A stretch of DNA of 64,000 nucleotides from Caldilineaceae bacterium (lineage in GTDB: Bacteria > Chloroflexota > Anaerolineae > Caldilineales > Caldilineaceae). The position numbers and the translations under genes were made by a program. The notes below the pieces were generated by a model that had not been told where the DNA came from, did not search any database, and saw only the letters and a list, made by a program, of their open reading frames with translations. Within the stretch, counting starts at the first letter, position 1. Each line of letters opens with the position of its first letter. This document shows positions 2,702-62,087 of this stretch, piece after piece. The stretch is taken from positions 1 to 64,000 of the forward strand of contig JAJEBF010000033.1 in the NCBI GenBank assembly GCA_022824025.1. Direction: 5' to 3'.

Positions 2702-2747
2702 GGCTGAGGTACGCAACCGGGATGGGGACGCGCGCGCAGCTGAGTCG

Positions 2748-2966
2748 TCACCCGGTGATCGCCTGGAAGGTCTGGATGGCGTCCTCGATGATGCCGGCGA
2801 TGATGTCAATCCAATCTTCGCCGCCAAACAGCGCATCCATGTTAATTTCCGCGGGATTGGGTTGCCAGTTGGCGGAGGCGTAGAGCCAGCCGAAGATCCC
2901 GGCGCCAATCACGAGGGCGAAGGAGATTCGGTTAAGGAACCGGCTGCGGGGCCTGAAACGAGGCAT
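2748..2966 (-). CDS. Hypothetical small single-pass membrane protein (~72 aa)
   Basis: MPRFRPRSRFLNRISFALVIGAGIFGWLYASANWQ... has one hydrophobic helix and protein-like composition. It is convergent with the GH5-like gene. There is no recognisable family and only a weak SD. Confidence 0.3.
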   Translation of the reverse strand: MPRFRPRSRFLNRISFALVIGAGIFGWLYASANWQPNPAEINMDALFGGEDWIDIIAGIIEDAIQTFQAITG

Positions 2967-3132
2967 GGACGTCCTGTGCGGTGATTGGTCGGCGTCCGAT
3001 TGTTGACGCGGACGTGATTTGGATGACGGTGACGTCATTTTGCAACGCGGGGCTGAATTTGCCAAACGTAGGGTCGATGCTATACTCGGCTGTGCTTTGG
3101 CAAGGGTTGGACCTTGACAGCATGAAATGCAA

Positions 3133-3206
<74 letters not shown>

Positions 3207-3440
3207 CCTTCCGCAGCGTTCGATGTCCCCTATGCGAGAAGTTCAGAATCCAGTTCATCTGGCAGTTGATGCGGTCGTCCGTGTCGAGACTTGACGCGGC
3301 CGCAACCTTAGGCGTCCTTCTACAGAAATGGCCGATCATTGCCCCTCCCCGTAAAGCCTGGGTTCAGCCGGCGTTTCGCAACAGAACATTGACTGAATAG
3401 GCTTTCGCGATCTGCGGGTCCTTTCATTGCCTGATAGCGG

Positions 3441-15479: not shown

Positions 15480-16400
15480 ATGTCGATTATTCTCTCTCTT
15501 TCTGAACATGAAGGAAGTATCTGGGCCGCCGGCCCCTACGGCCTGTTTGCCGTTGGCGAAGAGGAGCTGACACCCACCCCCCAGCCGCAGGAAAGGTTGA
15601 CCGCGGCCTGCAGTCTTGGGGACCGCATCTTTACCGGTGGCGCGCCCTTTGGCGTGGCCTATCTTCTGGACAGTGCGGAACAGTGGCAGGCGGCGTGGCA
15701 GGAGGGCGCTGATTCAGCGGTACTCACATTTGCCTCGGCGCCGGACTACGACGATTCCGGCGTTATCCTGGCAGGCAGCGAGGGTGACGGCGTGCTTCGC
15801 AGTCGCGATCGGGGTCTGCGCTGGATGCCCAGCAATTTCGGATTGCGGAACCTGACGGTTCTGACGCTGGCGTGGGCGCCGCCGATGGACGAGGACACGT
15901 GGCCCCACTGGCAGGTCGTGTTCGCGGGAACGGAGGAGGGCATCTACCGTTCGCCGAATGCTGGGCTGGGGTGGAAGCGCAGCGAATCGGCTGACGCGGC
16001 CTACCAGACTGTGGCGGTTGCGCCTGACGTACATTGCAGCGGGCTGGTGCTGGCTGGAACCGAAGCGGGCGGACTTTGGCGGTCCACAGACGGAGGCCGC
16101 TCGTTCGACACGGTTGAAAAGGCGCCGGAGCAGGTGAACGCGTTGCTCGCCCTGGCAAACGGGTCGGAAGGCGCGTCCGCGGGCGGGGGAAGTTCGGCCG
16201 GCTGGTTACTGAGCGATGACACGCAGCTGTGGTGCTCGCAGGACGGTGCCGCCTGGTCCCCGGTTGAAGGCAGCACGCCGGCCCTGTGCATGCTGGAGAT
16301 AGACGGTCGCGTATACATTGGCGGCGAGAATGGCGTGACCGTGCTGAACAGCGCAAATTTGCAGGTGGAAAGGCTTCTACAGATTCCGCCCATTTCGTAG
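15480..16400 (+). CDS. BNR/Asp-box repeat beta-propeller protein (Ycf48-like), cytoplasmic (no signal peptide)
   Basis: Repeated blades AGSEGDGVLRSRDRGLRW, AGTEEGIYRSPNAGLGW, AGTEAGGLWRSTDGGRSF and GGENGVTVL. The ATG is 3 nt after the GroEL-like TAA. Confidence 0.7.
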   Translation: MSIILSLSEHEGSIWAAGPYGLFAVGEEELTPTPQPQERLTAACSLGDRIFTGGAPFGVAYLLDSAEQWQAAWQEGADSAVLTFASAPDYDDSGVILAGSEGDGVLRSRDRGLRWMPSNFGLRNLTVLTLAWAPPMDEDTWPHWQVVFAGTEEGIYRSPNAGLGWKRSESADAAYQTVAVAPDVHCSGLVLAGTEAGGLWRSTDGGRSFDTVEKAPEQVNALLALANGSEGASAGGGSSAGWLLSDDTQLWCSQDGAAWSPVEGSTPALCMLEIDGRVYIGGENGVTVLNSANLQVERLLQIPPIS

Positions 16401-21530: not shown

Positions 21531-21998
21531 TCAGGGGAGGGAGTCTTCGGTTTCGATTACATCGATGCGGACGGCTACCCAGCCGTCGTTGTCGCTGAGG
21601 ATGTCGTCGTTGATGCGCAGGTAGAGGATGCCGTGCTCGCCTGCTTGCATGTTCACGGCTTGGCCGACGATGAAGCGCGCTCCGCTTTCGCCGATGCGGC
21701 CAATGAGCGCGCCGCCGGCCCCGCTGGAAATTGGGTAGAAACTGGCGGCGGGGAATCTGGGATGTCCGGCAGGCCCGTGAAACTCATCGGGCGTGTAGAG
21801 CCATTGCCCGGTTGCGGCGATTCTGACTCGGTCTCCGTAATCGATCCGAATCCCTGTACTTTGCCAGTCGCGGTAGGCGTAGATGCGTTTGGCGACAAGG
21901 TCGCTGTGGCGCTTGGAGACCGTCAGGGCCGGTTGAGCGGTTTGCGCCAGGGCCGCCAGGACAGTCACGGCGCCTGCCAGAAGGAGTAGCTTTCGCAT
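21531..21998 (-). CDS. Secreted PA-IL/LecA-like lectin-fold protein
   Basis: Signal peptide MRKLLLLAGAVTVLAALA. The stretch DYGDRVRIAATGQWLYTPDEFHGPAG...GALIGRIGESG...ILYLRINDDILSDNDG resembles the PA-IL galactophilic lectin pattern, recalled from memory. Confidence 0.55.
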   Translation of the reverse strand: MRKLLLLAGAVTVLAALAQTAQPALTVSKRHSDLVAKRIYAYRDWQSTGIRIDYGDRVRIAATGQWLYTPDEFHGPAGHPRFPAASFYPISSGAGGALIGRIGESGARFIVGQAVNMQAGEHGILYLRINDDILSDNDGWVAVRIDVIETEDSLP

Positions 21999-36156: not shown

Positions 36157-36612
36157 TTAGTCGACGGCGATGATGGCTTCGATTTCGACGGCCCAGTTGG
36201 CGGGCACGGTGAGGCCGATGGCGCTGCGGGCGTGGCGGCCGGCGTCGCCGAAGAGCTCGATGAAGAGTTCGCTGCAGCCGTGGATCACGGATGGTGTGTC
36301 GTTAAAGTCGGGCCCTACGTTGACCATGCCGAAGACCTTGACGACCTGGCGGACGTTGTCGAGGCCGGCGATGGTGTGGACGGCCTGGAGGATGTTGAGC
36401 GCGCAGAGCTGTGCGGCGCGGTAGCCCTCTTCGGTGGTCAGGTCCTGCCCGACCTTGCCGATTATCTCTTCATCGCCCCACCGGGAGACCTGGCCGGAGA
36501 CGTAGACATGGTCGCCGGAGCGGACTGCGGCCATAAGGCGGCCGCCGTCGAGGTCGATCTTCTCCAGTTCGTAGCCCATTTCCTTAAGTTTTGCCAAATA
36601 AGACACGTTTTG
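36157..36612 (-). CDS. RidA/YjgF-family protein (second paralogue)
   Basis: GTG start preceded by AGGAG. DGGRLMAAVRSGDHVYVSGQV ... VKVFGMVNVGPDFND. Confidence 0.75.
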   Translation of the reverse strand, partial: QNVSYLAKLKEMGYELEKIDLDGGRLMAAVRSGDHVYVSGQVSRWGDEEIIGKVGQDLTTEEGYRAAQLCALNILQAVHTIAGLDNVRQVVKVFGMVNVGPDFNDTPSVIHGCSELFIELFGDAGRHARSAIGLTVPANWAVEIEAIIAVD

Positions 36613-36692
36613 CTCCTGTTGTTTGTTTCGCGGACGGCGGACTGCCGCGCGGTCATAAGGTTGTAAGGTGGAAAGTAAGTCGTTCGACTGTT

Positions 36693-49801: not shown

Positions 49802-50167
49802 ATGAAGCGAGAAATTCATCCTGAATACTATGCTGCCGCGCGTGTGTATTGCTCGTGCGGAAACAGCTGGGTGACGGGTAGCACGCAGGCAGAAATCAAC
49901 GTCAATATCTGCAGCCAGTGCCATCCTTTTTATACCGGCGAGCAGCGGATCGTAGACTCGGTCGGCCGTGTTGAGCGGTTTGTAAGACGGTTGGAGTCGC
50001 GGCAGAGCGCGGCGGCCCGGCAGCAGATCGAGGCGACGGCGCGGCAGGAAGCCGATGCGGCGGCGCGGCGGGCGCGAGCGCGCGGGGACGATCCGGAAGC
50101 GGCCGCAGCGGAAGTGATGGCCCGGTACGAAGAGGAAGCGGGAGCCGAAGCGGAGGCAGAGGCGTAG
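49802..50167 (+). CDS. rpmE: Ribosomal protein L31 (Zn-ribbon type) with an Ala/Arg/Glu-rich C-terminal extension
   Basis: [10 protein letters not shown]...[12 protein letters not shown]...[10 protein letters not shown]. Confidence 0.85.
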
Positions 50168-50191
50168 CCGAAAGCGCGGGCGAAACGGGGC

Positions 50192-50836
50192 ATGCACTTT
50201 CAATCCGGCGGCGGATGGATCGAACTGATCTGCGGTTCGATGTTCAGCGGCAAGACGGAAGAGTTGCTGCGCCGGGTACGGCGGTCGGAGATCGCGCGGC
50301 GGCGCATTCAGTTGTTCAAGCCTCAGATAGACAATCGCTACGGGCGTGAGCGGCTGGCCTCGCACAATGGCATGTCGCGCGGCGATGTCGCTATTCTAGA
50401 GGACACGGCTTCATTGTTGGAGCAGGTGAAGCCGGACACTGAGGTGGTGGCGATCGACGAGGTGCAGTTTTTTGACCCGGCGGTTGCAGGTATCTGCCAG
50501 GCGCTGGCTGACCGCGGAATGCAGGTGATCGCTGCAGGGCTGGACCAGGATTTCCGCGGGGAGCCGTTCGGCGCGATGCCGCTGTTGATGGCGCTGGCTG
50601 AGCGGGTGGATAAGTTGCACGCGATCTGTGTGCGGTGCGGCGCGTCGGCGACGCGAACGCAGCGGTTGATTGACGGGAAACCGGCCCGCTATGATGAACC
50701 GGTGATTCTGGTGGGCGGGAGTGAAAGCTACGAGGCGCGCTGCCGCGGTTGCCATGATGTGCCGGGGAGACCGGTTGCGGCGTCAATGGGGCGGAGTAGG
50801 CCGGCCGGCAGGGGTTCGACGGGCGTGACAGTTTAA
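50192..50836 (+). CDS. tdk: Thymidine kinase
   Basis: P-loop GSMFSGKT. C-terminal Zn ribbon CVRCG...CRGCH. Confidence 0.9.
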
Positions 50837-50856
50837 GAGATATATTTTGGAGAGGG

Positions 50857-50880
50857 CGGGCCGGTCTGGCCCGTTTTTTT
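50857..50880 (+). terminator. Rho-independent terminator after tdk
   Basis: CGGGCC - ggtct - GGCCCG followed by TTTTTTT. Confidence 0.65.
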
Positions 50881-50931
50881 GTCGCCGCGGCCCGGGATGG
50901 GCGGCGGCTTCCCTTTGTCAGGAATTTGGGC

Positions 50932-50946
50932 AATCAGGATTGGGAG
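50932..50946. promoter_or_regulatory. Palindromic AATCAGGATT / CAGGATTGGG motif, ~109 nt upstream of the acyl-CoA ligase ATG
   Basis: Same 10-mer as at 52592, and a related CAGGATTrGGGG as at 52572. Confidence 0.35.
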
Positions 50947-51043
50947 AAGGGATGGATTGTCGGGATGGAAGGTTGCGAAAGGTGGGGGAGGTTTTATATA
51001 GTAGCCGGGGCAGGGGGAACTGAATTGGGGAGGACTGGTTGAT

Positions 51044-52570
51044 ATGAATTTATTGGATCTTTTTGCGATTGGGCGGGAGCGGGAGCCGGGGAAGAAGGCG
51101 GTTGAGTTTGTGGATTCACGCGGGCCGCTGGGACGACGGGACTTGACGTTTGGGGCGCTGCAGCAGGAGGCGCAGAGATGGGCGGCGGCGTTTGCACGGA
51201 TGGGAGTGCGGAAGGGCGACCGGGTCGCGCTCTATTTGCCCAACCGGCCGGAGTTTGTGATCGCCTATCTGGCGACCCTGGAGGCAGGGGCGGTGATGGT
51301 TCCGATCAACTTGCGCTACCGGCGGCGGGAGTTGAGTCACATTCTGAATGACGCTGAACCGGCGCTGCTGGTGGTTGAGGATGCGCAGCAGGCAGTGCTG
51401 GATGAGATCCTGGGCGCGGATGTGGGCCCGGGACTGGCTGTGCTGTCTGTGGACAGGGTGGAGAGCTGGTTGGACGAGGCCGATGAGGAGGCGCGGGGCG
51501 ATGGGTCGCGTGCGGCGGCAAGAGGCGAGGACGCGGCGCTGATTATGTACACGAGCGGCACGACAGGAACGAGCAAGGGCGCTGTGCTGAGCCATAACCA
51601 TGTGCTGGCGACTGTGACGGGGCTGCTGAGCGCGTGGGCGTGGCAGGCGGATGACGTGCTGCTGCTGCCGTTGCCGCTGTTTCATACGCACGGGCTGATT
51701 GTAGGGCTGCACTGCGCGCTGGCGATGGGTGCGACGGTGCGTCTGCGTACGGCGTTCGATGCCGAGGAGACGGTGGAGACGCTGTCGACGGGCGGGGCAA
51801 CGCTTTTTTTTGCCGTGCCGACGATTTATACGCGGTTGGTTGATCTGCTTGGAAAGGAGAAGGAGCCGCCGAAGTTTAAGGGGATGCGACTGTTCTGTTC
51901 AGGCAGCGCGCCGCTGCCGGCGGAAGTTCACAATGCGTTTGAAAGACTGACGGGTCAACGCATTCTGGAGCGGTACGGGATGACGGAGACGGGCATGAAT
52001 TTCAGCAATCCCTATGCAGGGCCGCGCGTGGCGGGTACGGTGGGTACGCCGCTGCCAGGGGTGTTCGCCCGCATCGTGGACGCGGCGGGAACGGATCTGC
52101 CGGCAGGGGAGGAAGGCGAGCTGCTGCTGCGGGGGAGCAATGTGTTCGACGAGTACTGGCGGGCGCCGCAGAAGACGGCAGAGAGTTTTGTGCATGACGA
52201 GCTGGGGAATCGCTGGTTTTTGACGGGGGACCTGGCGCGCATGGACCCGCAGACGGGGTATGTGACGCTGCTCGGGAGGAGCCATGAACTGATTATTTCG
52301 GGCGGACTGAATATCTACCCGCGCGAGGTGGAAGAGATGTTGACGACGTTTCCCGGTATTGAGGAGGCGGCGGTGGTGGGAGAGCCGGACACCGAGTGGG
52401 GCGAGGCGCCGGTGGCCTACCTGGTTTGCAGCGGTGCGATTGATGAGGGGGAACTGGAGCGGTACTGCCGGGGGCAGCTGGCTTCGTATAAGTTGCCGAA
52501 ACGGTTGCGGTTTGTGAGGGAGCTGCCGCGGAATGCGATGGGGAAGGTGCAGAAGCACAGGCTCGTCTAG
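51044..52570 (+). CDS. AMP-dependent acyl-CoA synthetase/ligase
   Basis: AMP-binding motif LIMYTSGTTGTSKGAVLSH. C-terminal GEEGELLLRG...DLARMD. Confidence 0.85.
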   Translation: MNLLDLFAIGREREPGKKAVEFVDSRGPLGRRDLTFGALQQEAQRWAAAFARMGVRKGDRVALYLPNRPEFVIAYLATLEAGAVMVPINLRYRRRELSHILNDAEPALLVVEDAQQAVLDEILGADVGPGLAVLSVDRVESWLDEADEEARGDGSRAAARGEDAALIMYTSGTTGTSKGAVLSHNHVLATVTGLLSAWAWQADDVLLLPLPLFHTHGLIVGLHCALAMGATVRLRTAFDAEETVETLSTGGATLFFAVPTIYTRLVDLLGKEKEPPKFKGMRLFCSGSAPLPAEVHNAFERLTGQRILERYGMTETGMNFSNPYAGPRVAGTVGTPLPGVFARIVDAAGTDLPAGEEGELLLRGSNVFDEYWRAPQKTAESFVHDELGNRWFLTGDLARMDPQTGYVTLLGRSHELIISGGLNIYPREVEEMLTTFPGIEEAAVVGEPDTEWGEAPVAYLVCSGAIDEGELERYCRGQLASYKLPKRLRFVRELPRNAMGKVQKHRLV

Positions 52571-52571
52571 G

Positions 52572-52601
52572 CAGGATTAGGGGGACCGGGGGAATCAGGA
52601 T
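52572..52601. promoter_or_regulatory. CAGGATTAGGGGG ... AATCAGGATT motif pair, ~110 nt upstream of the acyl-CoA dehydrogenase ATG
   Basis: Shared with 50932-50946. A related TGATTAGGGGG lies at ~53904. Confidence 0.35.
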
Positions 52602-52681
52602 TTGCGGGATGATTGGATTTACGGGATTCCGGCGCCCAGAGTTGCCGATTCGGCTGACCCCTTCCACCCGGTATATTAACG

Positions 52682-53860
52682 ATGTCACTCTACCAGATTG
52701 AACTTGATACGAGCGGACGCTACTCCCAGCTGCGGCGCGGCGTAAGACAGCTGTGCACGCGTTTTCCGGGGGCGTATTGGCGGCGGCTGGATGGGGAGCG
52801 GGGGTATCCTGTCGAATTTGTGGAGGCGATGACGGAAGCGGGGTTTTTGGCCGCGCTGATTCCGGAGGAATACGGGGGCGGGGGCGCGACGGTTGCGGAG
52901 GCTTCGGTGATTCTGGAGGAGGTGAACCGGAGCGGAGGGAACGCGGGGGTTTGCCATGCGCAGATGTACGTGATGGGAGCGCTGGCGCGGCATGGGTCGG
53001 CGGCGCAGAAGGAGCGGTGGCTGCCGCCCCTGGCGGAGGGAAAGCTGCGGCTGCAGGCGTTCGGCGTGACGGAGCCGACAGCGGGTTCGGATACGACGCG
53101 GATTCAGACGCGGGCGGAGCGGGACGGCGACGAGTATGTGATCACGGGGCAGAAGATCTGGACGAGCCGGGCGGAACATTCCGATTTGATGCTGCTGCTG
53201 GCGCGTACGACGCCACTGGAAGAAGTGAAGAAGCGGACGGAAGGGCTGTCGCTGTTCATGGTGGATTTGCGGGACGCGGATGAGCAGGCGTTGACGATCC
53301 GGCCGCTGGAAACAATGATCAATCATCATACGACTGAGGTGTTTTTTGACGGGCTGCGCGTGCCGGCGGCGAACCGCATCGGCGAGGAAGGTAAGGGGTT
53401 CCGGTATATCCTGGACGGGATGAATGCGGAACGGATTTTGATTGCGGCGGAGTCGATTGGCGATGGAGGCTGGTTTGTTGAGCGATCGGTGGCGTATGCG
53501 AACGAGCGGGTGGTTTTTGACCGGCCGATAGGGCAGAATCAGGGGGTACAGTTTCCGATTGCGCAGGTGTACGCGAGTTTGCGGGCGGCCGATTTGATGC
53601 GCTGGGAGGCGGCGCGGTTGTATGACAGCGGGCTGCCTTGCGGGGCGGAGGCGAATATGGCAAAGATGTTGGCGGCGGATGCGGCGTGGGAGGCGGCGAA
53701 TGTGTGCCTGCAGACGCACGGCGGGTTCGGTTTTGCGAGAGAGCACGATGTGGAGAGGAAGTTTCGCGAGGCGAAGTTGTACCAGATAGCGCCGGTGGCG
53801 AATAATCTTGTGTTGTCCTATTTGGCGCAGCATGTGTTAGGGTTGCCGCGATCATATTGA
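52682..53860 (+). CDS. Acyl-CoA dehydrogenase
   Basis: Typical ACAD length and motifs (GVTEPTAGSD, QTHGGFGFAREH). Confidence 0.9.
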   Translation: MSLYQIELDTSGRYSQLRRGVRQLCTRFPGAYWRRLDGERGYPVEFVEAMTEAGFLAALIPEEYGGGGATVAEASVILEEVNRSGGNAGVCHAQMYVMGALARHGSAAQKERWLPPLAEGKLRLQAFGVTEPTAGSDTTRIQTRAERDGDEYVITGQKIWTSRAEHSDLMLLLARTTPLEEVKKRTEGLSLFMVDLRDADEQALTIRPLETMINHHTTEVFFDGLRVPAANRIGEEGKGFRYILDGMNAERILIAAESIGDGGWFVERSVAYANERVVFDRPIGQNQGVQFPIAQVYASLRAADLMRWEAARLYDSGLPCGAEANMAKMLAADAAWEAANVCLQTHGGFGFAREHDVERKFREAKLYQIAPVANNLVLSYLAQHVLGLPRSY

Positions 53861-53928
53861 TTCTGGGGGGGAAGGCGGGGAACGGCGAGGCACGGTGGGG
53901 GTGGGGTTTTTGACTGATTAGGGGGTAG

Positions 53929-55134
53929 TTGGCTATGGCGACGGTTGATGGTGGGTTGGGTTTGCCTTTGTCGCACGTGACTGTTGTTTCGCTGGAGCAG
54001 GCGATTGCGGCGCCTCTGGCGACGCGGCATCTGGCGGATTTGGGGGCGCGGGTCATTAAAGTGGAAAGGCCGGGCGGCGGAGATTTTGCGCGCCATTATG
54101 ATAAGGCGGCAGAGGGTCTTTGCAGCCACTTCGCGTGGGCAAACCGCTCGAAGGAGTCGATTACACTGGACCTGAAGACGGCGGAGGGCAAAGAGATCCT
54201 GGCGAAGTTGCTGGAGCGGGCGGATGTATTCGTGCAGAACCTGGCTCCTGGGGCGGTGGGGCGGCTTGGGTTCGACGATGACCGGCTGCAGGCGGACTAC
54301 CCTGAGCTGATAGTATGCCATGTAAGCGGGTATGGCGCTGACGGGCCATACCGGGACAAGAAGGCGTATGATCTGCTGATCCAGGCGGAGACCGGTGTCG
54401 TGTCGGTGACGGGCACAGAGGAGGAGGCGGCCAAGACGGGAATTCCGGTGGCCGATTTGGCGGGTGGGATGTACGCGTACAGCAGCATCCTGGCGGGGCT
54501 GCTGCAGCGCGAGCGGAGCGGCGGGGGATGCGTGCTGCAGGTTTCGCTGTTTGACGGGCTGTGCGACTGGATGGGCTTTCCGGCCTATTTCGCCTTGGGA
54601 GGAGAGCGCTTGACCCGTAACGGGGCCAACCATGCGTCGATTGCGCCGTATGGCCCGTATGCGACGGGAGACGGGCGCACGGTTTTGTTCTCGATACAGA
54701 GCCAGCGGGAGTGGGAGCAGTTCTGCACGGTGGTGCTGGAGAGGCCGGCGTTTGCGGTGGACGCGCGTTTTGTTGACAATACAAGGCGATTTCAAAACAA
54801 GGAGGCGCTGCGACGGGAGCTGGAATCTGTCTTTGCCGACTTTTCGGCGGCGGAGGTGGAGTCTCGGATGGAGGCGGCGCAGATCGCGCACGCGCAGTTG
54901 CGAGACATGGAGGCGTTTTGGGAGCATCCGCAACTGCAGGCGCGGGGACGGATCGGGGAGGTGCCGTCACCGGTGGGGCCTCTGCCGGCGCTGCATCCGG
55001 CGACGACGAACGACGAATGGCCGCCGCGCTTTGACCCGATCCCGGCAACAGGGGAGCATACGCGGGCGCTGCTGATGGAGTTGGGTTATGGGTTGGATGC
55101 AGTTGAGCAGTTGAAGCGGGATGGCGTTGTATGA
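53929..55134 (+). CDS. Family III CoA-transferase (CaiB/BaiF)
   Basis: LSHVTVVSLEQAIAAPLATRHLADLGARVIKVERPGGGD is the family III N-terminus. Confidence 0.85.
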   Translation: MAMATVDGGLGLPLSHVTVVSLEQAIAAPLATRHLADLGARVIKVERPGGGDFARHYDKAAEGLCSHFAWANRSKESITLDLKTAEGKEILAKLLERADVFVQNLAPGAVGRLGFDDDRLQADYPELIVCHVSGYGADGPYRDKKAYDLLIQAETGVVSVTGTEEEAAKTGIPVADLAGGMYAYSSILAGLLQRERSGGGCVLQVSLFDGLCDWMGFPAYFALGGERLTRNGANHASIAPYGPYATGDGRTVLFSIQSQREWEQFCTVVLERPAFAVDARFVDNTRRFQNKEALRRELESVFADFSAAEVESRMEAAQIAHAQLRDMEAFWEHPQLQARGRIGEVPSPVGPLPALHPATTNDEWPPRFDPIPATGEHTRALLMELGYGLDAVEQLKRDGVV

Positions 55135-55185
55135 TGGAGAACGGCGGGTCTGGGTTTTCTACCTGCGCGCAGGAAGGGATCTGAG

Positions 55186-55689
55186 ATGTCCACACAGTCA
55201 GATAGCCGGGGCCGATATTTTGAGGATTTCAGCGTCGGAGATGTTTTTGAGCACAGTTTGGGGCGGACGGTGCTGGCGGCGGACAATGTCTGGTTTACCC
55301 TGCTGACGGTGAACGCGAACCCGATTCATTTTGACGCCCACTATGCAAGCCAGACCGAATGGGGGCGTCCGCTGGTCGATTCGACGTTCACGCTGGCGCT
55401 GGTGACGGGGCTATCGGTGGCGGACATTTCGCAGAATGCGGTCAATCTCGGCTGGGACGAGGTACGATTGCCGGCGCCGGTGTTTGAGGGCGACACGATC
55501 TATGCGCAAAGCGAGGTGCTGCATTTGCGGCCGTCCGGGAGTCGTGCGCATCAGGGAATCGTCACGGTGCGCACGGTTGGCTTCAACCAGGACGGTGTGA
55601 TCGTCATCGAATTTAAGCGCACTTTACTTGTCTACAGGCGCGGCCATGGACCGAAGAATCGTCGACCGGTTGTACAGGATATTGGGTAG
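55186..55689 (+). CDS. MaoC-like (R)-specific enoyl-CoA hydratase/dehydratase (hot-dog fold)
   Basis: FEDFSVGDVFEHSLGRTVLAADNVWFTLLTVNANPIHFD. Confidence 0.75.
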   Translation: MSTQSDSRGRYFEDFSVGDVFEHSLGRTVLAADNVWFTLLTVNANPIHFDAHYASQTEWGRPLVDSTFTLALVTGLSVADISQNAVNLGWDEVRLPAPVFEGDTIYAQSEVLHLRPSGSRAHQGIVTVRTVGFNQDGVIVIEFKRTLLVYRRGHGPKNRRPVVQDIG

Positions 55690-55744
55690 GGGGCGCCGGC
55701 GCGAAGGCGGGCCGCCGGGCGCACACGGCAACAGTGGACCGCCC

Positions 55745-56293
55745 ATGCTTGAGGCTGGCGGGAGAGGCGAGCCAGGTGAATTGACGGTGAAGCGCTTGGA
55801 TACGCCGCGAATGACGATTATCGCGTTGACGGTGCAGCAGATGCGCTGGCAGCGGGACAGTTTTGCACGGTTGGAGCAGACGTTGGGTCTGGCGGCGAGC
55901 GGGCAGCGGCTGGAGGACGAGTTGCGGCCGATCGTTTCGCGGGCGATCAGCCATATGCGGCGGAGGCCGCATCAAGCGCGCTGGCATTGCCAGTGGGTTG
56001 CGGTGTTGAAGAGTGAGCGGCGGATAGTTGGAAGCCTGGCGTTCAAGGGGCCGCCGGACCGGGACGATTCGGTGGAGATAGGGTACGGTTTCGACCCGTT
56101 TTATCATAATCGGGGTCTGGCGACGGAGGCGGTTGGGGAGATGGTCCGCTGGGCGTTGGGTGAGGATGGGGTGGAGGCGGTGATCGCGGAGACGGCGAAC
56201 ATGAATGTGGCGTCGATGCGGGTATTGCAGAAGGTGGGGTTTGTGATTGTGTCCGCGACGAGCCGGTACCTGTATTGGAAGGTCGGTGGATAG
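55745..56293 (+). CDS. GNAT-family N-acetyltransferase (RimJ/RimL-like)
   Basis: C-terminal ETANMNVASMRVLQKVGFV. Start uncertain: 55745 or 55811. Confidence 0.6.
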   Translation: MLEAGGRGEPGELTVKRLDTPRMTIIALTVQQMRWQRDSFARLEQTLGLAASGQRLEDELRPIVSRAISHMRRRPHQARWHCQWVAVLKSERRIVGSLAFKGPPDRDDSVEIGYGFDPFYHNRGLATEAVGEMVRWALGEDGVEAVIAETANMNVASMRVLQKVGFVIVSATSRYLYWKVGG

Positions 56294-56339
56294 AACGGCA
56301 GGGCAGAGGGGCGAGGGGGTAGGGGCCAGGGGGTCGGCT

Positions 56340-57197
56340 TCAGGTTTTGTGGACGATGTAAATGAGTTCGGAGGAGTATGTGAGGGAGTCGGCCTGCCAG
56401 CCGGCTTTTTCTATTTGGGAGAGGAAGGAGGCGGTGTGGTGTTGGGCCATGCCTTGTTTGCGGCCGGCGAGCGAGTGGTTGGGGAAGGAGACGATGAGGA
56501 TAGGGGCGTCGATCTGGTGGAGGAGGCGTTGGGCGGCGCCCGATTGGATCTGTTCGAGGCAGGGGAGGGTTTTGAGGAGGAAAGCGACGTCGGCTGAGGG
56601 GGCGCTCATGTCGTCGAGGGCATTGCGCTGTTCGACGGAGCCGGCGTAGCCCATGAGGCGGAAGAAGCGGTTGAGGAAGTCGGCCTGGTCGGCGAAGATG
56701 TCGCAGGCGAAGTAGGGCAGGTCGGGAGGGAGGGGCATCCAGGGACGGGCCAGGGGATGGAGGCCGCAGGCGATGTCGAGGACGGAGTGGACGGGGGGAA
56801 GGCGCTGGAAGAGCTGGGAATAGAGGGTATCGAGCAGGGGCAGCCTTTCGTGGGTGGAGGCGTGGGCGGCCATGAGGCGGCGGAGGAGGGCGAGCACGGG
56901 CTCGGCATCGCGGGGCGGGCCGGGGCCGTGGGCGCGAGAGGGGGGCTTCAGGGCTGATTGCAGCTGGAGGAGGGCGTCGTCGTAGTTCAGGTTGCGCCGG
57001 ATGTAGGCGGCGGCGCTCTGGTGCAGCTGGTTCTTGGCCGCTTTGACGGCCTCTTTGACGGAGCGGCCTTTGGCCAGCTCTGCAGAAGCGATGGCGCGTG
57101 CGAGGCCGGGGTGCACGCTGCGATATTTGCGGGCGGAGAGAAGAGCGGCGAGAGCCTTTTCAAGCTGGTCGTCGGGCTGCTGCGGGGCGGCATTCAT
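56340..57197 (-). CDS. 16S rRNA (guanine1405-N7)-methyltransferase homologue of the FmrO/Rmt/ArmA aminoglycoside-resistance family
   Basis: Collinear match to RmtB recalled from memory: SARKYRSVHPGLARAI, HASTHERLPLLDTLYSQLF..VLDIACGLHPLA, SFPNHSLAGRKQGM, ELIYIVHK. Start chosen at the ATG giving MNAAPQQPDD. A TTG 51 nt upstream is an alternative. Confidence 0.7.
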   Translation of the reverse strand: MNAAPQQPDDQLEKALAALLSARKYRSVHPGLARAIASAELAKGRSVKEAVKAAKNQLHQSAAAYIRRNLNYDDALLQLQSALKPPSRAHGPGPPRDAEPVLALLRRLMAAHASTHERLPLLDTLYSQLFQRLPPVHSVLDIACGLHPLARPWMPLPPDLPYFACDIFADQADFLNRFFRLMGYAGSVEQRNALDDMSAPSADVAFLLKTLPCLEQIQSGAAQRLLHQIDAPILIVSFPNHSLAGRKQGMAQHHTASFLSQIEKAGWQADSLTYSSELIYIVHKT

Positions 57198-57261
57198 CGA
57201 GCTTGTCAGGATGGCGTAGACGACGGCCGGCGCGGGGGCGGCTTGCAACCGGTCTCAGAGG

Positions 57262-57756
57262 CTAGCCGCTGAACTGCTGTTTGAGGGCGCGGTTGACGTC
57301 TCTTTCGGCATCGCGCCTGGCGATGGACTGCCGTTTGTCGTATTGGCGCTTGCCGCGCACAAGTGCGATCTGGACTTTGGCGAGGCCGGCGCCGTTGATG
57401 TACATGCGGAGGGGCACGATGGTCCAGTTTCGCTGGGTGGCGCGTGCGTGCAGGTGATCGATTTGGCGCCGGTGGAGGAGAAGCTTGCGGGAGCGGGTTT
57501 CCTGGTGGTTGGCGCGATTTCCGTGCCGGTATTGGGCGATATGGACGCCCATGAGCCAGGCTTCGCCATCTCGGACGAGAACGAAACCTTCACGCAGGTT
57601 TACAGAGCCGGCGCGCACCGACTTGATCTCAGTGCCGGTGAGGGCGAGGCCGGCCTCGAAGGTTTCTTCGATGAAGTAGTCGTGGCGGGCTTTGCGATTT
57701 GTGGCGACGGTGCGGGGACCGGTGGGAGCCGTCCGTTCCTTCTTCTTTTTGGCCAA
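57262..57756 (-). CDS. smpB: SsrA-binding protein
   Basis: NRKARHDYFIEETFEAGLALTGTEIKSVR... Confidence 0.9.
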   Translation of the reverse strand: MAKKKKERTAPTGPRTVATNRKARHDYFIEETFEAGLALTGTEIKSVRAGSVNLREGFVLVRDGEAWLMGVHIAQYRHGNRANHQETRSRKLLLHRRQIDHLHARATQRNWTIVPLRMYINGAGLAKVQIALVRGKRQYDKRQSIARRDAERDVNRALKQQFSG

Positions 57757-57807
57757 TGTCAGTTCTCTATGTGCCTAACTCACGCTGTCGGGAGGCGGGC
57801 GTCTCGC

Positions 57808-59103
57808 TCAGTCGCCGCCGGTGAGCAGTTCGATCGCCCGGTCGAGCTGGGGATCTTCTTCATTTTCAATCTGCTCGTTGGTCCGCTCGATCACGATATC
57901 CGGTTCGAGCCCTGTATCGTCGATGGAGCGGTCGGCGGGCGTATACCAGAGAGCGATGGTGACGCGCAGCAGGCTGTCATCGCTGAGGGTATGGGGCAGT
58001 TGCACGCTGCCTTTGCCAAAGGTTGTTTCGCCGATCAGGGTGGCGCGTTCAACGTCCTGTAGGGCGCCGGCGACGATTTCGCTGGCGCTGGCGCTGCCTT
58101 TGTTGACGAGTACGACGATGGGCAGATCGTCGGGTACGAGAGCATTGCCTTCGGTATTGTAGATTTCTTCGCTGCCGTCGGAGAAGCGCTCGATGAGGAC
58201 GCGCTCGTCTTCGAGGAAGATACTGGTCACTCGGATGGCTTCGCGCAGGAGGCCGCCCGGGTTGCCGCGCAGGTCGAAGATAAGGCCCTCGGTGTCGTTG
58301 GTCAGGAGCGCTTCGAGTTCGTCGCGCAGCTTGGCTCCGGCATCGGAGGAGAAGCGTTTGAGGGCGACATAGGCGAACTGGTCGTCGTCGCCGTATCGGT
58401 CGCTTTCGACGATGGGGATATCGATAAGGTCCCGGGTAACGGGAAACTCGAGTGGGTCGTCGAGCCCGTCGCGGCGGACGGTGAGGTTGACTTCAGTGCC
58501 TTTGGGGCCTTTGATCCTGTTGATGGCTTCATTGAGGTTGGCCAGTTCGGCCACATCCTGGCCGTTGATGGCGATGATCAGGTCGCCGCGGCGGATGCCG
58601 GCATTCCAGGCAGGTTGGTCTTCAAAGGGCTCGATGATGCGCACTGCGCTTTCTTCTTCGGCCCATTCCACGAGGGCGCCGATGCCTTCGAAGCTGCCCT
58701 CTATGCTTTCCATGAAACTGGTCGCTTCGGCGGGGGTGAGGAAGCCGGTGTTCTGGTCATGGAGTGTATCGAGGACGCCGCGGATGGCTCCGTAGCTGCG
58801 TTCGTTGGGCGCGGGCAGCTCGCCGTAGAAGTCTTCCTCGAGGAGCTCCATGGCTTCCCAGAAGATACCAAGGTCTTCGGGGGCGAGGGCGCGGTCCGTT
58901 TCGGCGGCGACCACCGGAGACGCGGGGGTGTCGCCGCCAATGCTTAAACGTCCCAGCACGAAGCCGAGGCCGGATCCGGCAGAGAAGATGAGCGCGGCGA
59001 TGACGACGACGGCGACGACGGTGAGGCGCAGTTTTTGGCGGGAGGCACTCTGTTTGCCCAGACTGAGCCTGGTCAGCGCCGTCGGTTCAACATTATTGGC
59101 CAT
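57808..59103 (-). CDS. C-terminal processing (tail-specific) peptidase, S41 family, with a PDZ domain
   Basis: LIFDLRGNPGGLL and a TM anchor. Start chosen at MANNVEPTAL. The upstream in-frame extension is rejected. Confidence 0.85.
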   Translation of the reverse strand: MANNVEPTALTRLSLGKQSASRQKLRLTVVAVVVIAALIFSAGSGLGFVLGRLSIGGDTPASPVVAAETDRALAPEDLGIFWEAMELLEEDFYGELPAPNERSYGAIRGVLDTLHDQNTGFLTPAEATSFMESIEGSFEGIGALVEWAEEESAVRIIEPFEDQPAWNAGIRRGDLIIAINGQDVAELANLNEAINRIKGPKGTEVNLTVRRDGLDDPLEFPVTRDLIDIPIVESDRYGDDDQFAYVALKRFSSDAGAKLRDELEALLTNDTEGLIFDLRGNPGGLLREAIRVTSIFLEDERVLIERFSDGSEEIYNTEGNALVPDDLPIVVLVNKGSASASEIVAGALQDVERATLIGETTFGKGSVQLPHTLSDDSLLRVTIALWYTPADRSIDDTGLEPDIVIERTNEQIENEEDPQLDRAIELLTGGD

Positions 59104-59510
59104 GCGGGTATTCCTGACCTGAAAAAGACGGCCCTTTGCTGCGCGGTGGCCTGGGCCCGATGTCCCCTGGGACGGAACGAGTCCTGGCAGGGGGACGGTA
59201 TGGAACGGGTGAAGTTGGAGAGATTTTACCATAGGCGGGAACGGCAGGGCGAACGGCGGGGCACACAGGTTAGGGATAAGCCGCATGGCGGGCGTACGGG
59301 GGATCGGAAGGAAGGGGATTCCCGGAGCCTGAACGAACTGTCGGTGACAACGCGACGGCATGCTTTGTGGGAGGGGGATTCCAGAGAGGGAGAGGTTGGG
59401 GCTATAATAGGGGCGGCGCAGATGCTTGGCGCCGGGTTGGAATGGCGTGCGCGCTGAAGGGATTGTGCAGGGTTAGGAATGGGATCGTTCAGTGAACCGG
59501 AGGAGAAGAG

Positions 59511-60257
59511 ATGACAGTTCAGACTGAGGACATCCAGCGCCCGCCGCGTGGGTTGTCAGAAGGGCTGGCGAAGGTCGGGACGGCGACAGTGAGCGGGGAG
59601 TTGAGCAGGATGGGGATCAGCGATGCGCAGATACATGGGCCGCGGCCATGGACGCCAGGGAAGGTGGCGGCGGGGCCGGCGCTGACCCTGCAGTTTATGC
59701 CGAAGCGGGAGGACCAGTACAATGTGGACGAGTACAACGACCCTGAGAAGCAGCTCCACCGGCATGTCCTTTATCATACGCAGCCGGGGGATATGGTGGT
59801 TGTTGACGCCAGAGGGAACATGGCGAGCGGCGTTTTCGGCGAGATGATGCTCACCTTTTTCCAGGGGCGCGGAGGCATCGGCGTTGTCATTGACGGATGC
59901 ATTCGGGATTATCCGAAGGCGCAGGAACTGGATTTGGGGTTGTGGCTGCGGGGTGTTACGCCGAATTTCCATACGCAGACAAGCATCTTCCCGTTTGCGG
60001 TGAATGTTCCGGTGGCCTGCGGCGATACGCTGGTGATGCCGGGCGACATCGTGGTTGCGGACGACGACGGGGTTGTTGTTGTGCCGATTGGGCTGGCGGC
60101 GGAGCTGCTGGACAAGGCGGGAGAACACGCGGAGTGGGAGGAGTTCTCGCGGATGAGGCTGGCCGAGGGCGGTGATCTGCGGAAATATTATCCGTTGCGC
60201 GAAGATGCCCGGGCGGAGTATGAGGCGTGGAAGGAGAGTGCGGAAGGGCAGGGGTGA
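59511..60257 (+). CDS. RraA-family protein (second paralogue)
   Basis: GVVIDGCIRD ... PGDIVVADDDGVVVVP. Confidence 0.75.
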   Translation: MTVQTEDIQRPPRGLSEGLAKVGTATVSGELSRMGISDAQIHGPRPWTPGKVAAGPALTLQFMPKREDQYNVDEYNDPEKQLHRHVLYHTQPGDMVVVDARGNMASGVFGEMMLTFFQGRGGIGVVIDGCIRDYPKAQELDLGLWLRGVTPNFHTQTSIFPFAVNVPVACGDTLVMPGDIVVADDDGVVVVPIGLAAELLDKAGEHAEWEEFSRMRLAEGGDLRKYYPLREDARAEYEAWKESAEGQG

Positions 60258-60364
60258 GGGACGAGGGGCTGGATGGGCGGCGGCGGAAGGGATGAAGGGA
60301 ATTGGCGAAGGTATGGTATCATCATGCCGCTTCCAGTTGTCGCCAATGTAAATGGAAACTCTCG

Positions 60365-60877
60365 ATGACTACCTTTGCCGAATCCAAGAGAATGCCCGGC
60401 AGCGAGTGGTTGAAGGACCGACCGCGCCTGTTGGAGGCAGTCTACCGGGGATCGGAGGCGGGCTTGCGGCTGCTTTACCCGGTGTTGAGACGGGTACTGC
60501 CGGCAGGGTGGACGGAGCGCGTCTTCGTGTGGACCGAAGAGGTATCGAAGGGGTACCTGTTCAACTGTCAGATGTGCGGGCAGTGTATTCTTCACAGCAC
60601 GGGCATGACGTGCCCGATGAACTGCCCGAAGAATCTGCGCAACGGGCCGTGCGGGGGCGTGCGCCAGAACGGGAATTGCGAGGTGATCCCGGATATGCCG
60701 TGCGTTTGGGTACAGGCGTGGCGACGGGATGCGCAGATGGAGAGGTACAGCGGCGAGATCCTGCTGTTGCAGCGGCCGGTGAACCGGGCGTTACAGGACA
60801 GCAGCGCGTGGCTGAACCTGCTGGAGGGGGTTGACGCGCAAGGGCCGCCCGGCTGGTCTGCGATCGAGTTGGAGTAG
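60365..60877 (+). CDS. metV: MetV-like Cys-rich small subunit (MTHFR C-terminal-domain family) preceding metF
   Basis: CQMCGQCILHSTGMTCPMNCPKNLRNGPCGG. Confidence 0.6.
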   Translation: MTTFAESKRMPGSEWLKDRPRLLEAVYRGSEAGLRLLYPVLRRVLPAGWTERVFVWTEEVSKGYLFNCQMCGQCILHSTGMTCPMNCPKNLRNGPCGGVRQNGNCEVIPDMPCVWVQAWRRDAQMERYSGEILLLQRPVNRALQDSSAWLNLLEGVDAQGPPGWSAIELE

Positions 60878-60976
60878 GTCTGTTCCTCAGGGTCCGGCTA
60901 GCAAGTTTTCTGGCGGCGCGAGACCCGATTCATCGTCCTCAAACTCAAAAAACGCCCACACTTTATTGCTCTGCAC

Positions 60977-61948
60977 ATGGGGAATTCAGACCGGACGCCG
61001 GAAGCCAGTCAAGGGGATTCGCGGAGCGGCGAATCCCGACTGCGCCGGGTGTTGGAGGCCGGCCAGTTTGCGGTAACGGCGGAGTTGAGCACGCCGGACT
61101 CAGCTGACCCGCAGGATGTATTCGCGAACGCGGCGAAGTTGGGAGGCGTGTGCGACGGCATCAATGCGACGGACGGGTCGGGCGCGAACTGCCACATGAG
61201 CAGTGTGGCCTGCTGCGCGCTGATGGCGCGGGCTGGCTATGAGCCGGTCCTGCAAATCAGTTGCCGGGACCGCAACCGGATCGCGATACAGGGGGATCTG
61301 CTGGGTGCGGCTGCGCTGGGCGTACGCAATGTGCTGTGCCTGACGGGCGACGACGTGAGCGCGGGCGATCAGCCGGAGGCGCGGCGCGTTTTCGACTTTG
61401 ATGCGCTGCAGTTGCTGCGCACGGCGGAGATCATGCGGGACCGGGGCGTGTTGCTGAGCGGGCGCAAGTTGACGACGCCGCCGGCGTACTTTCTTGGCGC
61501 GGCGGCGAACCCGTTCGTGCCGCCGCGCGATCTGCGGCATCTGCGGTTGGCGAAGAAGATCGAGGCGGGCGCGCAGTTTATCCAAACACAGTACTGTTTC
61601 GATGTGCCGGTCTTGGAGGCGTTTATGCGCAGAGCGCGCGACATGGGCCTGCACGGGAATGTCCACCTGCTGGTTGGGGTGGGTCCGCTGCGTTCTGAGC
61701 GGGCGGCGGAGTTCATGCGCCGCCGGGTGCCGGGGGTGCATATTCCCGATGCGATCGTGGAGAGGTTGGCGAAGACCCCGCGGAAGAGCAAGCGTGAGGA
61801 GGGAATCCGCATCTGCGTGGAGATTATTGAGCAGGTGAAGCAGATCGAGGGTGTGCGCGGCGTCCATATTATGGCGTACCGGCAGGAGGAGACGGTGCCT
61901 GAGATCGTGGAGCGGGCGGGGCTTCTGCGGGAGAAGCCGACGGTGTAA
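60977..61948 (+). CDS. metF: 5,10-methylenetetrahydrofolate reductase
   Basis: FAVTAELSTP, GVRNVLCLTGDD and QFIQTQYCFD are MTHFR motifs. Confidence 0.85.
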   Translation: MGNSDRTPEASQGDSRSGESRLRRVLEAGQFAVTAELSTPDSADPQDVFANAAKLGGVCDGINATDGSGANCHMSSVACCALMARAGYEPVLQISCRDRNRIAIQGDLLGAAALGVRNVLCLTGDDVSAGDQPEARRVFDFDALQLLRTAEIMRDRGVLLSGRKLTTPPAYFLGAAANPFVPPRDLRHLRLAKKIEAGAQFIQTQYCFDVPVLEAFMRRARDMGLHGNVHLLVGVGPLRSERAAEFMRRRVPGVHIPDAIVERLAKTPRKSKREEGIRICVEIIEQVKQIEGVRGVHIMAYRQEETVPEIVERAGLLREKPTV

Positions 61949-62087
61949 ATCGGCTCTGCCATTTGAACGTTTCCGGCTGGCTCGCGCTCTGGGCAACCAT
62001 CGTCTTCTTCAACCAGGGGACTCCATTGGGCGCGGTTTGCTCACTGGTTGCCTGACACCAGCTTCCTGTTTCAGCGGGATTGACACA

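Follow-up and report, generated by a model that had tools for sequence, protein, structure and literature searches.

What role does a gene of the methyltransferase family FmrO play directly downstream of smpB on a chromosome of the phylum Chloroflexota? The locus that raises this question lies in a stretch of 64,000 nucleotides (nt) of Caldilineaceae DNA (contig JAJEBF010000033.1, positions 1 to 64,000), which is called the window below. The minus strand of the window carries, at 56340..57197, a gene for a 285-residue protein, which was predicted to be a 16S rRNA (guanine1405-N7) methyltransferase that depends on S-adenosylmethionine (SAM) and belongs to the FmrO/Arm family. The prediction was based on searches of Pfam and the Protein Data Bank (PDB), an AlphaFold2 (AF2) model compared with solved structures by Foldseek, and ratios of nonsynonymous to synonymous substitution rates (dN/dS). 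That the gene is a chromosomal, vertically inherited member of the FmrO family is, in our estimate, close to certain. Sequence, model, and analogy with characterized enzymes further lead us to regard the protein as an active G1405 methyltransferase giving intrinsic resistance, a reading to which we assign a probability of about 0.7. The target nucleotide, the co-transcription with neighboring genes, and the resistance phenotype are elements of this reading that we infer.

Family Assignment by Sequence and Fold

A first-pass annotation of the window, made by a model from the sequence alone, had placed the protein in the FmrO family next to RmtB, ArmA, and Sgm. The Pfam profile FmrO (PF07091) matched over its whole length (positions 2-255 of 255) with 180.6 bits against a cutoff of 27 (E = 4.8e-53), which is far above chance and bore out the family membership. 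All three motif blocks on which the annotation had relied were present and aligned without gaps to RmtB and Sgm (RKYRSVHPGLARAI; HASTHERLPLLDTLY...VLDIACGLHPLA; SFPNHSLAGRKQGM / ELIYIVHK). A sequence search of the PDB returned eight matches, i.e. Sgm, RmtB (two entries), a chain of 6pi9 (RmtF according to the Foldseek label), ArmA, and the RmtC chains 6cn0, 6pqb, and 8ghu, with Sgm 3lcu as the best (E = 3.3e-47). In a common alignment, identity to the window protein amounted to 38% for Sgm, 35% for RmtB, 34% each for RmtF and RmtG, 30% for RmtE, 27% for ArmA, and 22% for RmtC.

An AF2 model built on 33 homologues reached a mean predicted local distance difference test score (pLDDT) of 86.8 and a predicted template modeling score of 0.85. 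It combined two helical subdomains (N1 and N2) with a Rossmann methyltransferase domain of class I and was superposable on the solved members of the family. When the PDB was searched with Foldseek, Sgm came out on top (template modeling scores 0.85/0.93, root mean square deviation (rmsd) 2.0 Å). Ranks 1-16 were all occupied by G1405 methyltransferases, namely Sgm, RmtF, RmtB, RmtC (including the 30S-bound structure 8ghu), and ArmA; the matches beyond rank 16 were unrelated O-methyltransferases with an rmsd of ~20 Å. Because Sgm ranked highest in both identity and structure, the nearest characterized enzyme is this producer-type protein and not RmtB or ArmA. The first-pass annotation was therefore right about the family, and its emphasis on RmtB and ArmA had to be shifted to Sgm.

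Sgm from Micromonospora zionensis (PDB 3lcu/3lcv), a member of the Kgm/Arm "large subfamily," was 38% identical over 268 aligned columns, and both proteins combine a two-subdomain N terminus with a Rossmann C-terminal domain. They differ in origin, Sgm stemming from an aminoglycoside-producing actinomycete and the window gene from a housekeeping operon of a member of the Chloroflexota. They also differ at two positions (Sgm Asp182 and Lys231 correspond to Asn192 and His241) and in the N2 loop, which is 9-10 residues longer in the window protein. The acquired, plasmid-borne enzymes RmtB, RmtF, RmtG, RmtE, ArmA, and RmtC have the Pfam family and the fold in common with the window protein, and the KYR..P, HAST.ERL..LDTLY, LDIACGL.PLA, SFP..SL.GR..GM, and ELIY blocks of RmtB are nearly identical in it; the differences lie in the identity of 22-35% and in the position of the window gene off mobile elements. 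None of the NCBIfam subfamily models (cutoffs 500-550 bits) reached its cutoff: the best score was 118 for RmtB, those for RmtC, RmtD, RmtE, RmtF, RmtG, and RmtH lay between 40 and 104, and no RmtA or ArmA subfamily model occurred among the NCBIfam matches of the protein. The environmental family is large and comprised 1530 clusters at 50% identity (E ≤ 1e-3), 299 of which had E ≤ 1e-30. The clade of the window protein formed a single cluster at this identity level.

Conservation of Residues for SAM Binding and Ribosome Recognition

Residue roles were taken from mutagenesis and isothermal titration calorimetry of Sgm, from the crystal structure and mutagenesis of RmtC, and from cryo-electron microscopy of the RmtC-30S complex combined with determination of minimal inhibitory concentrations (MICs). 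The transfer relied on an alignment containing RmtC, RmtB, RmtE, RmtF, RmtG, and ArmA from plasmid records. In Sgm, Arg108, Asp131, Gly135, Asp156, and Asp182 bind SAM, and the exchange D182A abolishes binding (PMC2896518). A crystal structure with mutagenesis is available for RmtC (bioRxiv 10.1101/712810), as are a structure on the 30S subunit and MIC data (PMC10054953). On the 30S subunit, Tyr60 and Lys204 of RmtC position G1405, Arg241 and Met245 distort helix 44, and Lys20, Tyr21, Arg50, and His54 of the N1 subdomain serve in docking (PMC10054953).

With regard to SAM binding, the window protein retained Ser114 (RmtC Ser107), Arg118 (RmtC Arg111, Sgm Arg108), Asp141 and Gly145 (Sgm Asp131 and Gly135), and Asp166 (RmtC Asp160, Sgm Asp156). 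Motif I, DIACG (Asp141...Gly145; 56763..56777, minus strand), aligned with Asp131...Gly135 of Sgm and is predicted to bind the methionine moiety of SAM; in an alignment of 154 environmental and known family members, the aspartate was present in 153 sequences and the glycine in 152. The N1 docking residues had equivalents in Lys24 and Tyr25 (RmtC Lys20 and Tyr21), Lys55 (Arg50), and His59 (His54), and those stacking on and positioning the base had equivalents in Tyr65 (Tyr60) and Lys209 (Lys204). In the loop that distorts helix 44, Arg246 (RmtC Arg241), Met250 (RmtC Met245), and Pro239 (Sgm Pro229) were kept. Conserved equivalents were thus seen for all of the RmtC residues Lys20, Tyr21, Arg50, His54, Tyr60, Ser107, Arg111, Asp160, Lys204, Arg241, and Met245. 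In the comparison with Sgm, Phe64, Glu107, Arg108, Asp131, Gly135, Asp156, Lys199, and Pro229 corresponded to Tyr65, Glu117, Arg118, Asp141, Gly145, Asp166, Lys209, and Pro239, respectively. The mapped residues were invariant across 20 orthologues, the single exception being an alanine in place of Pro239 in one of them, and they were also near-invariant in the 154-sequence alignment.

The segment PNHSLAGRKQGM (Pro239-Met250; 56448..56483, minus strand) aligned without gaps to RmtC, Sgm, and RmtB and is the equivalent of RmtC Loop237-246, with Arg246 and Met250 and with His241 replacing Lys236. In RmtC, RmtB, and Sgm, this loop lacks order in the free enzyme and becomes ordered on the 30S subunit (10.1101/712810; PMC10054953). 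In the AF2 model, residues 245-249 had pLDDT values below 50, which coincides with the loop disordered in the free enzymes. Judging from alignment and model, the parts of the protein for catalysis and recognition appear intact.

Deviations from the Characterized Enzymes

Several observations weigh against an active G1405 methyltransferase that confers resistance. The motif III aspartate (Sgm Asp182, RmtC Asp188) is replaced by Asn192, and the equivalent of RmtC Lys236 is His241, with histidine or glutamine at this position across the clade. The NCBIfam equivalog model for the Rmt family (NF000466) scored 205.9 bits (E = 6e-61), below its curated cutoff of 250. The case for co-transcription with the upstream genes is made by spacing and missing predicted signals only, and a literature search found no experimental test of any Chloroflexi homologue.

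The replacements bear on the idea that the enzyme drifted to another nucleotide of 16S rRNA or to another RNA and confers no aminoglycoside resistance. Lys236 of RmtC touches the G1405 base, and the exchange K236E reduces MICs (PMC10054953); a basic residue at this position was reported to be conserved in intrinsic and acquired enzymes (10.1101/712810). The histidine in place of this G1405-contacting lysine or arginine, the asparagine in motif III, the longer N2 loop, and the equivalog score below the cutoff could all be taken as signs of such a drift. However, the column of Lys236 in the family alignment contained arginine in 56, lysine in 23, histidine in 20, alanine in 18, and glutamine in 12 sequences, i.e. 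a basic arginine or lysine in 79 of the 154 and histidine, alanine, or glutamine in 50. This variability throughout the family suggests that a basic residue may not be strictly required at this position outside the characterized enzymes. Likewise, asparagine occurs at motif III in functional ArmA (Asn163) and in 27 of the 154 family members. Tyr65, Lys209, Arg246, Met250, and the N1 docking residues are all kept, and the fold of the whole chain matches Sgm at 2.0 Å. A changed target is thus unlikely in our view. The NF000466 scores of the smpB-linked relatives were similar (200-223 bits), and two homologues from elsewhere, those of Thermosporothrix (254.9) and Bdellovibrionales (RmtE-like, 283.8), passed the cutoff. 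Because the score of the window protein stays below it, resistance-gene pipelines would miss this protein.

The loop in the N2 subdomain turned out to be far shorter than the ~35-residue insertion described in the first-pass annotation. The actual surplus was 9-10 residues relative to Sgm and to Caldilineaceae homologues other than those from sponges, 16-22 relative to RmtF, ArmA, RmtG, and RmtB, and 2 relative to RmtC; the ...LALLRRL part of the string quoted as insertion aligned as a conserved helix. Correspondingly, the spacing from the histidine of LHQ to HxSTxER was 53 residues, as compared with 44 in Sgm, 43-46 in other Chloroflexi, 51 in RmtC, 42 in RmtE, and 31-37 in RmtB, RmtG, ArmA, and RmtF. 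The lengthening appeared as an alignment gap against Sgm and mapped to residues 88-97 (RAHGPGPPRD; 56907..56936, minus strand) as a lineage-specific feature. These residues were the least conserved among the orthologues (0.60 versus 0.85 overall), and pLDDT was below 50 for residues 88-95. The segment looks like a floppy loop of the variable N2 subdomain.

Vertical Inheritance in Caldilineaceae

The nearest proteins (98% and then 60-83% identity) came from metagenome-assembled genomes of Caldilineaceae, several of them on chromosomes of 5-6 Mb, in agreement with the first impression of a non-actinomycete host. This host, a Caldilineaceae bacterium of the phylum Chloroflexota, is probably sponge-associated: the bin-name series SB066x and COS1 presumably point to sponge metagenomes. 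The SB066x series has been cited alongside Poribacteria bins from sponges (PMC7883664). Genome contigs were searched with exact peptide patterns, a procedure that recovered close orthologues and two RmtE-like genes only and is not a survey of presence and absence throughout the Caldilineales. All 19 species-level Caldilineaceae genomes recovered had the gene order of the window with a few lineage-specific insertions: an RraA-like gene on the opposite strand, the S41 peptidase gene, smpB, FmrO, and then a convergent GNAT gene and genes for a MaoC-like hydratase, a family-III CoA-transferase, and an acyl-CoA dehydrogenase. Across these genomes the FmrO proteins were 73-93% identical, akin to S41 and GNAT, and identity was higher for SmpB (90-99%). 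Median pairwise dN/dS, calculated for FmrO, SmpB, and GNAT (the N terminus of S41 is divergent), was 0.23 for FmrO (20 orthologues), 0.07 for smpB, and 0.23 for GNAT. These values indicate that the FmrO gene is under purifying selection and is not decaying.

The S41-smpB-FmrO block was also kept in distant homologues (P0061 at ~60% identity; P0066, P0073, and P0089 at 47-50%), and an Acetyltransf_3-type GNAT gene followed in two of these loci. The spacer between smpB and FmrO measured 14-100 nt in the relatives. Metagenomic smpB loci that came from many phyla and extended downstream for 900 nt or more, most of them carrying SmpB of other phyla, were inspected as an approximate negative control. 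FmrO was present in two of 44 and was absent beside smpB in the SmpB relatives of 62-69% identity found in this search. The linkage is therefore a trait of Caldilineaceae and not a general one. In a neighbor-joining tree of the 154 sequences, the sponge sub-clade had 100% and the smpB-linked clade 72% bootstrap support, and neither contained a known enzyme. The deep nodes that place the clade relative to Sgm and the Rmt enzymes had bootstrap values of 0, and no sister subfamily is claimed.

Individual orthologous loci showed peculiarities. In one Caldilineaceae chromosome, a partial FmrO-like fragment (L019:7720-7925), which shares 57-62% identity with residues 216-284, separates the intact FmrO gene from the GNAT gene and looks like the remnant of a duplication. 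In another locus, an open reading frame (ORF) of 312 residues without a Pfam match separates smpB and FmrO (L010:4002-4940).

Could the gene instead be a mobile resistance determinant of recent acquisition, or the ancestor from which a clinical methyltransferase directly arose? Insertions just downstream of FmrO in two orthologous loci, an IS66-family transposase gene (L008:6098-7546) and a gene with HTH_3 and Peptidase_M78 domains (ImmA/IrrE-like; L004:6532-7854), might speak for mobility. On the other hand, synteny extends across 19 species, no mobile-element gene was found in the window, and GC content and GC content at third codon positions (GC3) are native: GC3 of the gene is 0.84, as compared with 0.68-0.84 for the genes of the window, and the GC profile of the window showed no local anomaly around it. 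Furthermore, tblastn against plasmid genes gave best local matches of 33.8% for RmtG, 32.5% for RmtF, 31.0% for RmtB, and 26.6% for ArmA, with RmtE also within 27-34%, and no plasmid gene more than ~34% identical to the window protein was found. Together with the fully supported sponge sub-clade devoid of known enzymes, these data render recent acquisition or direct ancestry extremely improbable. The suggestion that the gene is a reservoir in the sense of a direct progenitor thus received no support, whereas the other roles considered at the outset, an intrinsic determinant or a housekeeping enzyme, fit a chromosomal, vertically inherited gene with conserved synteny.

Probable Operon Context and Alternative Roles

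As first noted from the sequence, smpB, encoding the SsrA-binding protein of trans-translation (57262..57756, minus strand; Pfam SmpB, E = 6.2e-59; NCBIfam PRK05422, 205.8 bits versus a cutoff of 130), is co-oriented with the FmrO gene and immediately upstream, ending 64 nt before the FmrO ATG. The block begins with a gene for an S41 C-terminal processing peptidase with a PDZ domain (57808..59361, minus strand; Peptidase_S41, E = 8e-50), the N-terminal start of which is uncertain. No terminator-like site was detected on the minus strand in the 51-nt gap between S41 and smpB or in the 64-nt spacer between smpB and FmrO (57198..57261), and the latter also lacked a predicted promoter. A scan of 55500-59600 revealed no σ70-like promoter; being limited to the σ70 type, it may not suit Chloroflexota and is uninformative there. 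From spacing and missing signals we infer that S41, smpB, and FmrO form one transcription unit.

All 46 called genes of the window plus a MaoC-like ORF (55186-55689) were scanned with Pfam. The matches belonged to housekeeping, transport, and central-metabolism families, including ribosomal protein L21, thymidine kinase, acyl-CoA ligase, dehydrogenase, transferase, and hydratase, ATP-binding cassette (ABC) transporters, a radical-SAM protein, a chaperonin-like protein, and a histidine kinase; six genes had no match. No domain of the 2-deoxystreptamine pathway, no glycosyltransferase, and no transposase was found among these genes, six of which were unmatched, and within the window the ideas of producer self-resistance and of a mobile element are therefore unsupported. 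Self-resistance of an aminoglycoside producer, as known for sgm, kgmB, grmA, and fmrO of actinomycetes, would agree with the finding that the closest characterized relative is the producer enzyme Sgm. With no aminoglycoside-pathway domain in the scanned genes of this one 64-kb window and identical housekeeping flanks in 19 genomes, we nevertheless judge it highly improbable.

Homologues from other non-producers pointed to a different connection. In the cultured Ktedonobacteria member Thermosporothrix hazakensis (WP_111325637.1; L117/L118:3896-5831), tgt overlaps by 14 nt the gene for an FmrO homologue that is 45% identical to the window protein, and hflX, rlmN, and the gene for L28 are nearby. 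RmtE-like proteins are encoded directly downstream of tgt in a human-gut metagenome-assembled genome of Clostridiales (HRGM_Genome_3705, L020:3666-5534; 56% identity to RmtE2) and in one of Bdellovibrionales (L021:3896-5738; 51% to RmtE2). The plasmid-borne genes rmtE2 (L030) and rmtG (L116) likewise directly follow tgt, in which they differ from the window gene, and rmtG has been reported to reside in an rsmH-tgt-rsmL operon (PMC9311965). Because the association with tgt recurs in distant chromosomes, these arrangements support the notion that family members outside producers reside in operons related to translation, as far as can be judged from gene order. A metagenome contig (WUUC01106544.1, L038:1-3437) carried genes for S41 (1-864), smpB (915-1400), tgt (1393-2610; Pfam TGT, E = 3e-93), and an FmrO homologue (2616-3437), the product of which is 53% identical to the L025 protein and 44% to the window protein. 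This gene order might mark a transition between linkage to smpB and linkage to tgt.

The Chloroflexi homologues of Thermosporothrix (P0146) and Promineifilum (P0078) group with the window protein at the phylum level, are 45-47% identical to it, and are chromosomal as well. They differ in context, the window protein belonging to a sub-clade linked to S41 and smpB, Thermosporothrix having the order tgt-FmrO, and Promineifilum other flanks. In Candidatus Promineifilum breve (L022:5916-10057), the FmrO homologue is not beside smpB and is flanked by genes for a P-type cation ATPase, a MacB-type ABC transporter (FtsX/MacB_PCD permease and ATPase), and a PadR regulator. These neighbors are more suggestive of a locus for resistance or efflux.

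These contexts raise the possibility that m7G1405 is a constitutive housekeeping mark of the Caldilineaceae ribosome that serves decoding or quality control and is co-regulated with trans-translation, aminoglycoside insensitivity being a by-product. The chemistry would be identical, and such a role is compatible with intrinsic resistance by an active enzyme. It would explain a gene in a translation-related operon (S41 protease-smpB) in relatives down to 47% identity, the position of other non-producer homologues directly downstream of the tRNA modification gene tgt (in Thermosporothrix with hflX, rlmN, and L28 as well), the rsmH-tgt-rsmL operon of rmtG (PMC9311965), the lack of a biosynthetic cluster in the window, and the size of the environmental family with its 1530 clusters. 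A housekeeping mark is less easily reconciled with the restricted occurrence of the gene, which was present at two of 44 metagenomic smpB loci and missing in SmpB relatives at 62-69% identity, or with its dN/dS of 0.23, which is more relaxed than the 0.07 of smpB. To our knowledge, no organism has been demonstrated to use m7G1405 as a housekeeping mark. Moreover, in Escherichia coli, methylation of G1405 by acquired enzymes is reported to block endogenous methylation and to influence the fitness of the host (PMC3923132). We thus treat a housekeeping function as a tentative alternative. The same caution applies to its extension, by which m7G1405 would be a constitutive native 16S mark of the whole Caldilineaceae lineage, set by a gene cotranscribed with smpB and the gene for an S41 protease of the tail-specific type, the family outside actinomycete producers would be primarily a housekeeping one residing in translation operons (with smpB here and with tgt in Ktedonobacteria, Clostridiales, Bdellovibrionales, and the ancestors of rmtE and rmtG), and the clinical genes would have been recruited from there. 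We consider this extended scenario, including its assignment of operons, possible and somewhat doubtful.

Proposed Mechanism and Implications

Returning to the reading of an active methyltransferase that gives intrinsic resistance, we propose that the protein is most probably a class-I SAM-dependent enzyme of the Arm/Kgm/FmrO type that acts on the assembled 30S subunit of its host, its target being N7 of G1405 in helix 44. Enzymes of this family require assembled 30S as substrate, and in E. coli the m7G1405 mark blocks the action of rsmF (m5C1407). If the RmtC-30S structure is taken as a guide, the N-terminal helical subdomains would dock on the surface formed by h24, h27, h44, and h45 via Lys24, Tyr25, Lys43, Lys52, Lys55, and His59. 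The loop Pro239-Met250 with Arg246 and Met250 would then distort helix 44 and flip out G1405, Tyr65 and Lys209 would place the base beside SAM, and the cofactor would be held by Ser114, Arg118, Asp141, Gly145, Asp166, and Asn192.

As the last gene of the conserved S41-smpB-FmrO unit, FmrO would be expressed with the ribosome-rescue machinery and not with an antibiotic pathway. Because the gene is apparently expressed together with smpB, the pool of host ribosomes would carry the modification constitutively and would not be sensitive to 4,6-disubstituted deoxystreptamine aminoglycosides. The combination of genes is biologically plausible to some degree. SsrA-tagged proteins are among the substrates that tail-specific proteases of the S41 type degrade. 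Growth of an ssrA mutant of E. coli is specifically impaired by aminoglycosides (PMC11721466). A functional link between FmrO and its operon partners smpB and S41 is speculation at this point.

Chloroflexi members of the family have already been drawn as "uncharacterized homologs" (Nosrati et al. 2019, Fig. 1A legend; bioRxiv 10.1101/712810), and the public annotation of the orthologues reads "16S rRNA methyltransferase" for some and "hypothetical protein" for others. As far as literature searches show, the stable linkage to smpB across Caldilineaceae and the residue-level case for a catalytically intact clade are apparently new. If the enzyme is active, whole environmental and sponge-associated lineages of Chloroflexota would have ribosomes constitutively protected from gentamicin- and kanamycin-type drugs without producing them. 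The known natural distribution of m7G1405 would be wider, with a bearing on the origin of the clinical Rmt and Arm genes. The conserved position behind smpB and the position of other homologues behind tgt provide a testable lead, namely an affiliation of the family with operons for translation maintenance. Because no mobile allele is close to the window gene, which itself lies off mobile elements, the practical risk of antimicrobial resistance arising from it looks low.

Translation Start and Other Features of the Window

The first-pass annotation had given a length of 285-302 residues. The longer version corresponds to an ORF initiated at TTG (56340..57248, minus strand, 302 residues), and translation from the ATG at 57197 yields 285 residues. 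Public protein entries for homologues have lengths of 283-285 residues, and the equivalent ATG, followed by codons for N(A/S/T), is the start at all 19 orthologous loci. The 105 nt 5' of the ATG showed no conservation at the protein level and contained in-frame stops in most of these loci. Because the orthologues begin at this position and the upstream frame is unconserved and interrupted by stops, the sequence comparison identifies the ATG at 57197 as the true start. The coordinates of the first-pass annotation (56340-57197) are exactly those of the gene read from this ATG. The length of 285 residues was thus retained, and the 17-codon in-frame extension up to the TTG (57198..57248, minus strand) is probably untranslated, although some gene callers use the TTG, as evident from 302-residue cluster members. 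The plus-strand GC skew was strongly positive across 50000-62000 (0.11-0.48) irrespective of gene strand, and its peak (0.47-0.48) fell on the minus-strand FmrO gene.

Downstream, a gene for a RimJ-like GNAT acetyltransferase (55628..56293, plus strand; Pfam Acetyltransf_3, E = 6e-19) is convergent with the FmrO gene, as originally described, and ends 46 nt from its stop codon. Its best PDB match was the ribosomal-protein-S5-alanine N-acetyltransferase 3igr (E = 4e-6). The idea that it encodes an aminoglycoside acetyltransferase and hence a second resistance determinant was rejected; the NCBIfam score for AAC(6') was 26 bits against cutoffs of 250-400, and the best solved relative was RimJ. 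Approximately 110 N-terminal residues of this ORF had no domain match, Acetyltransf_3 setting in at residue 110 with profile position 45; its annotated start or N-terminal region is therefore uncertain. The orthologous locus L011 matched residues 56-220 of the GNAT protein only.

Elsewhere in the window, four ORFs with coding-like GC3 had no Pfam match (E ≤ 1e-5), at 1289-2701 (plus strand), 15480-16400 (plus), 21531-21998 (minus), and 36232-36666 (plus). The gene for L21 (48590-49480, plus strand) encodes 296 residues, of which residues 15-115 only form the L21p domain, and the protein carries a C-terminal extension of ~180 residues with a weak Phasin_2-like match (E = 1e-4).

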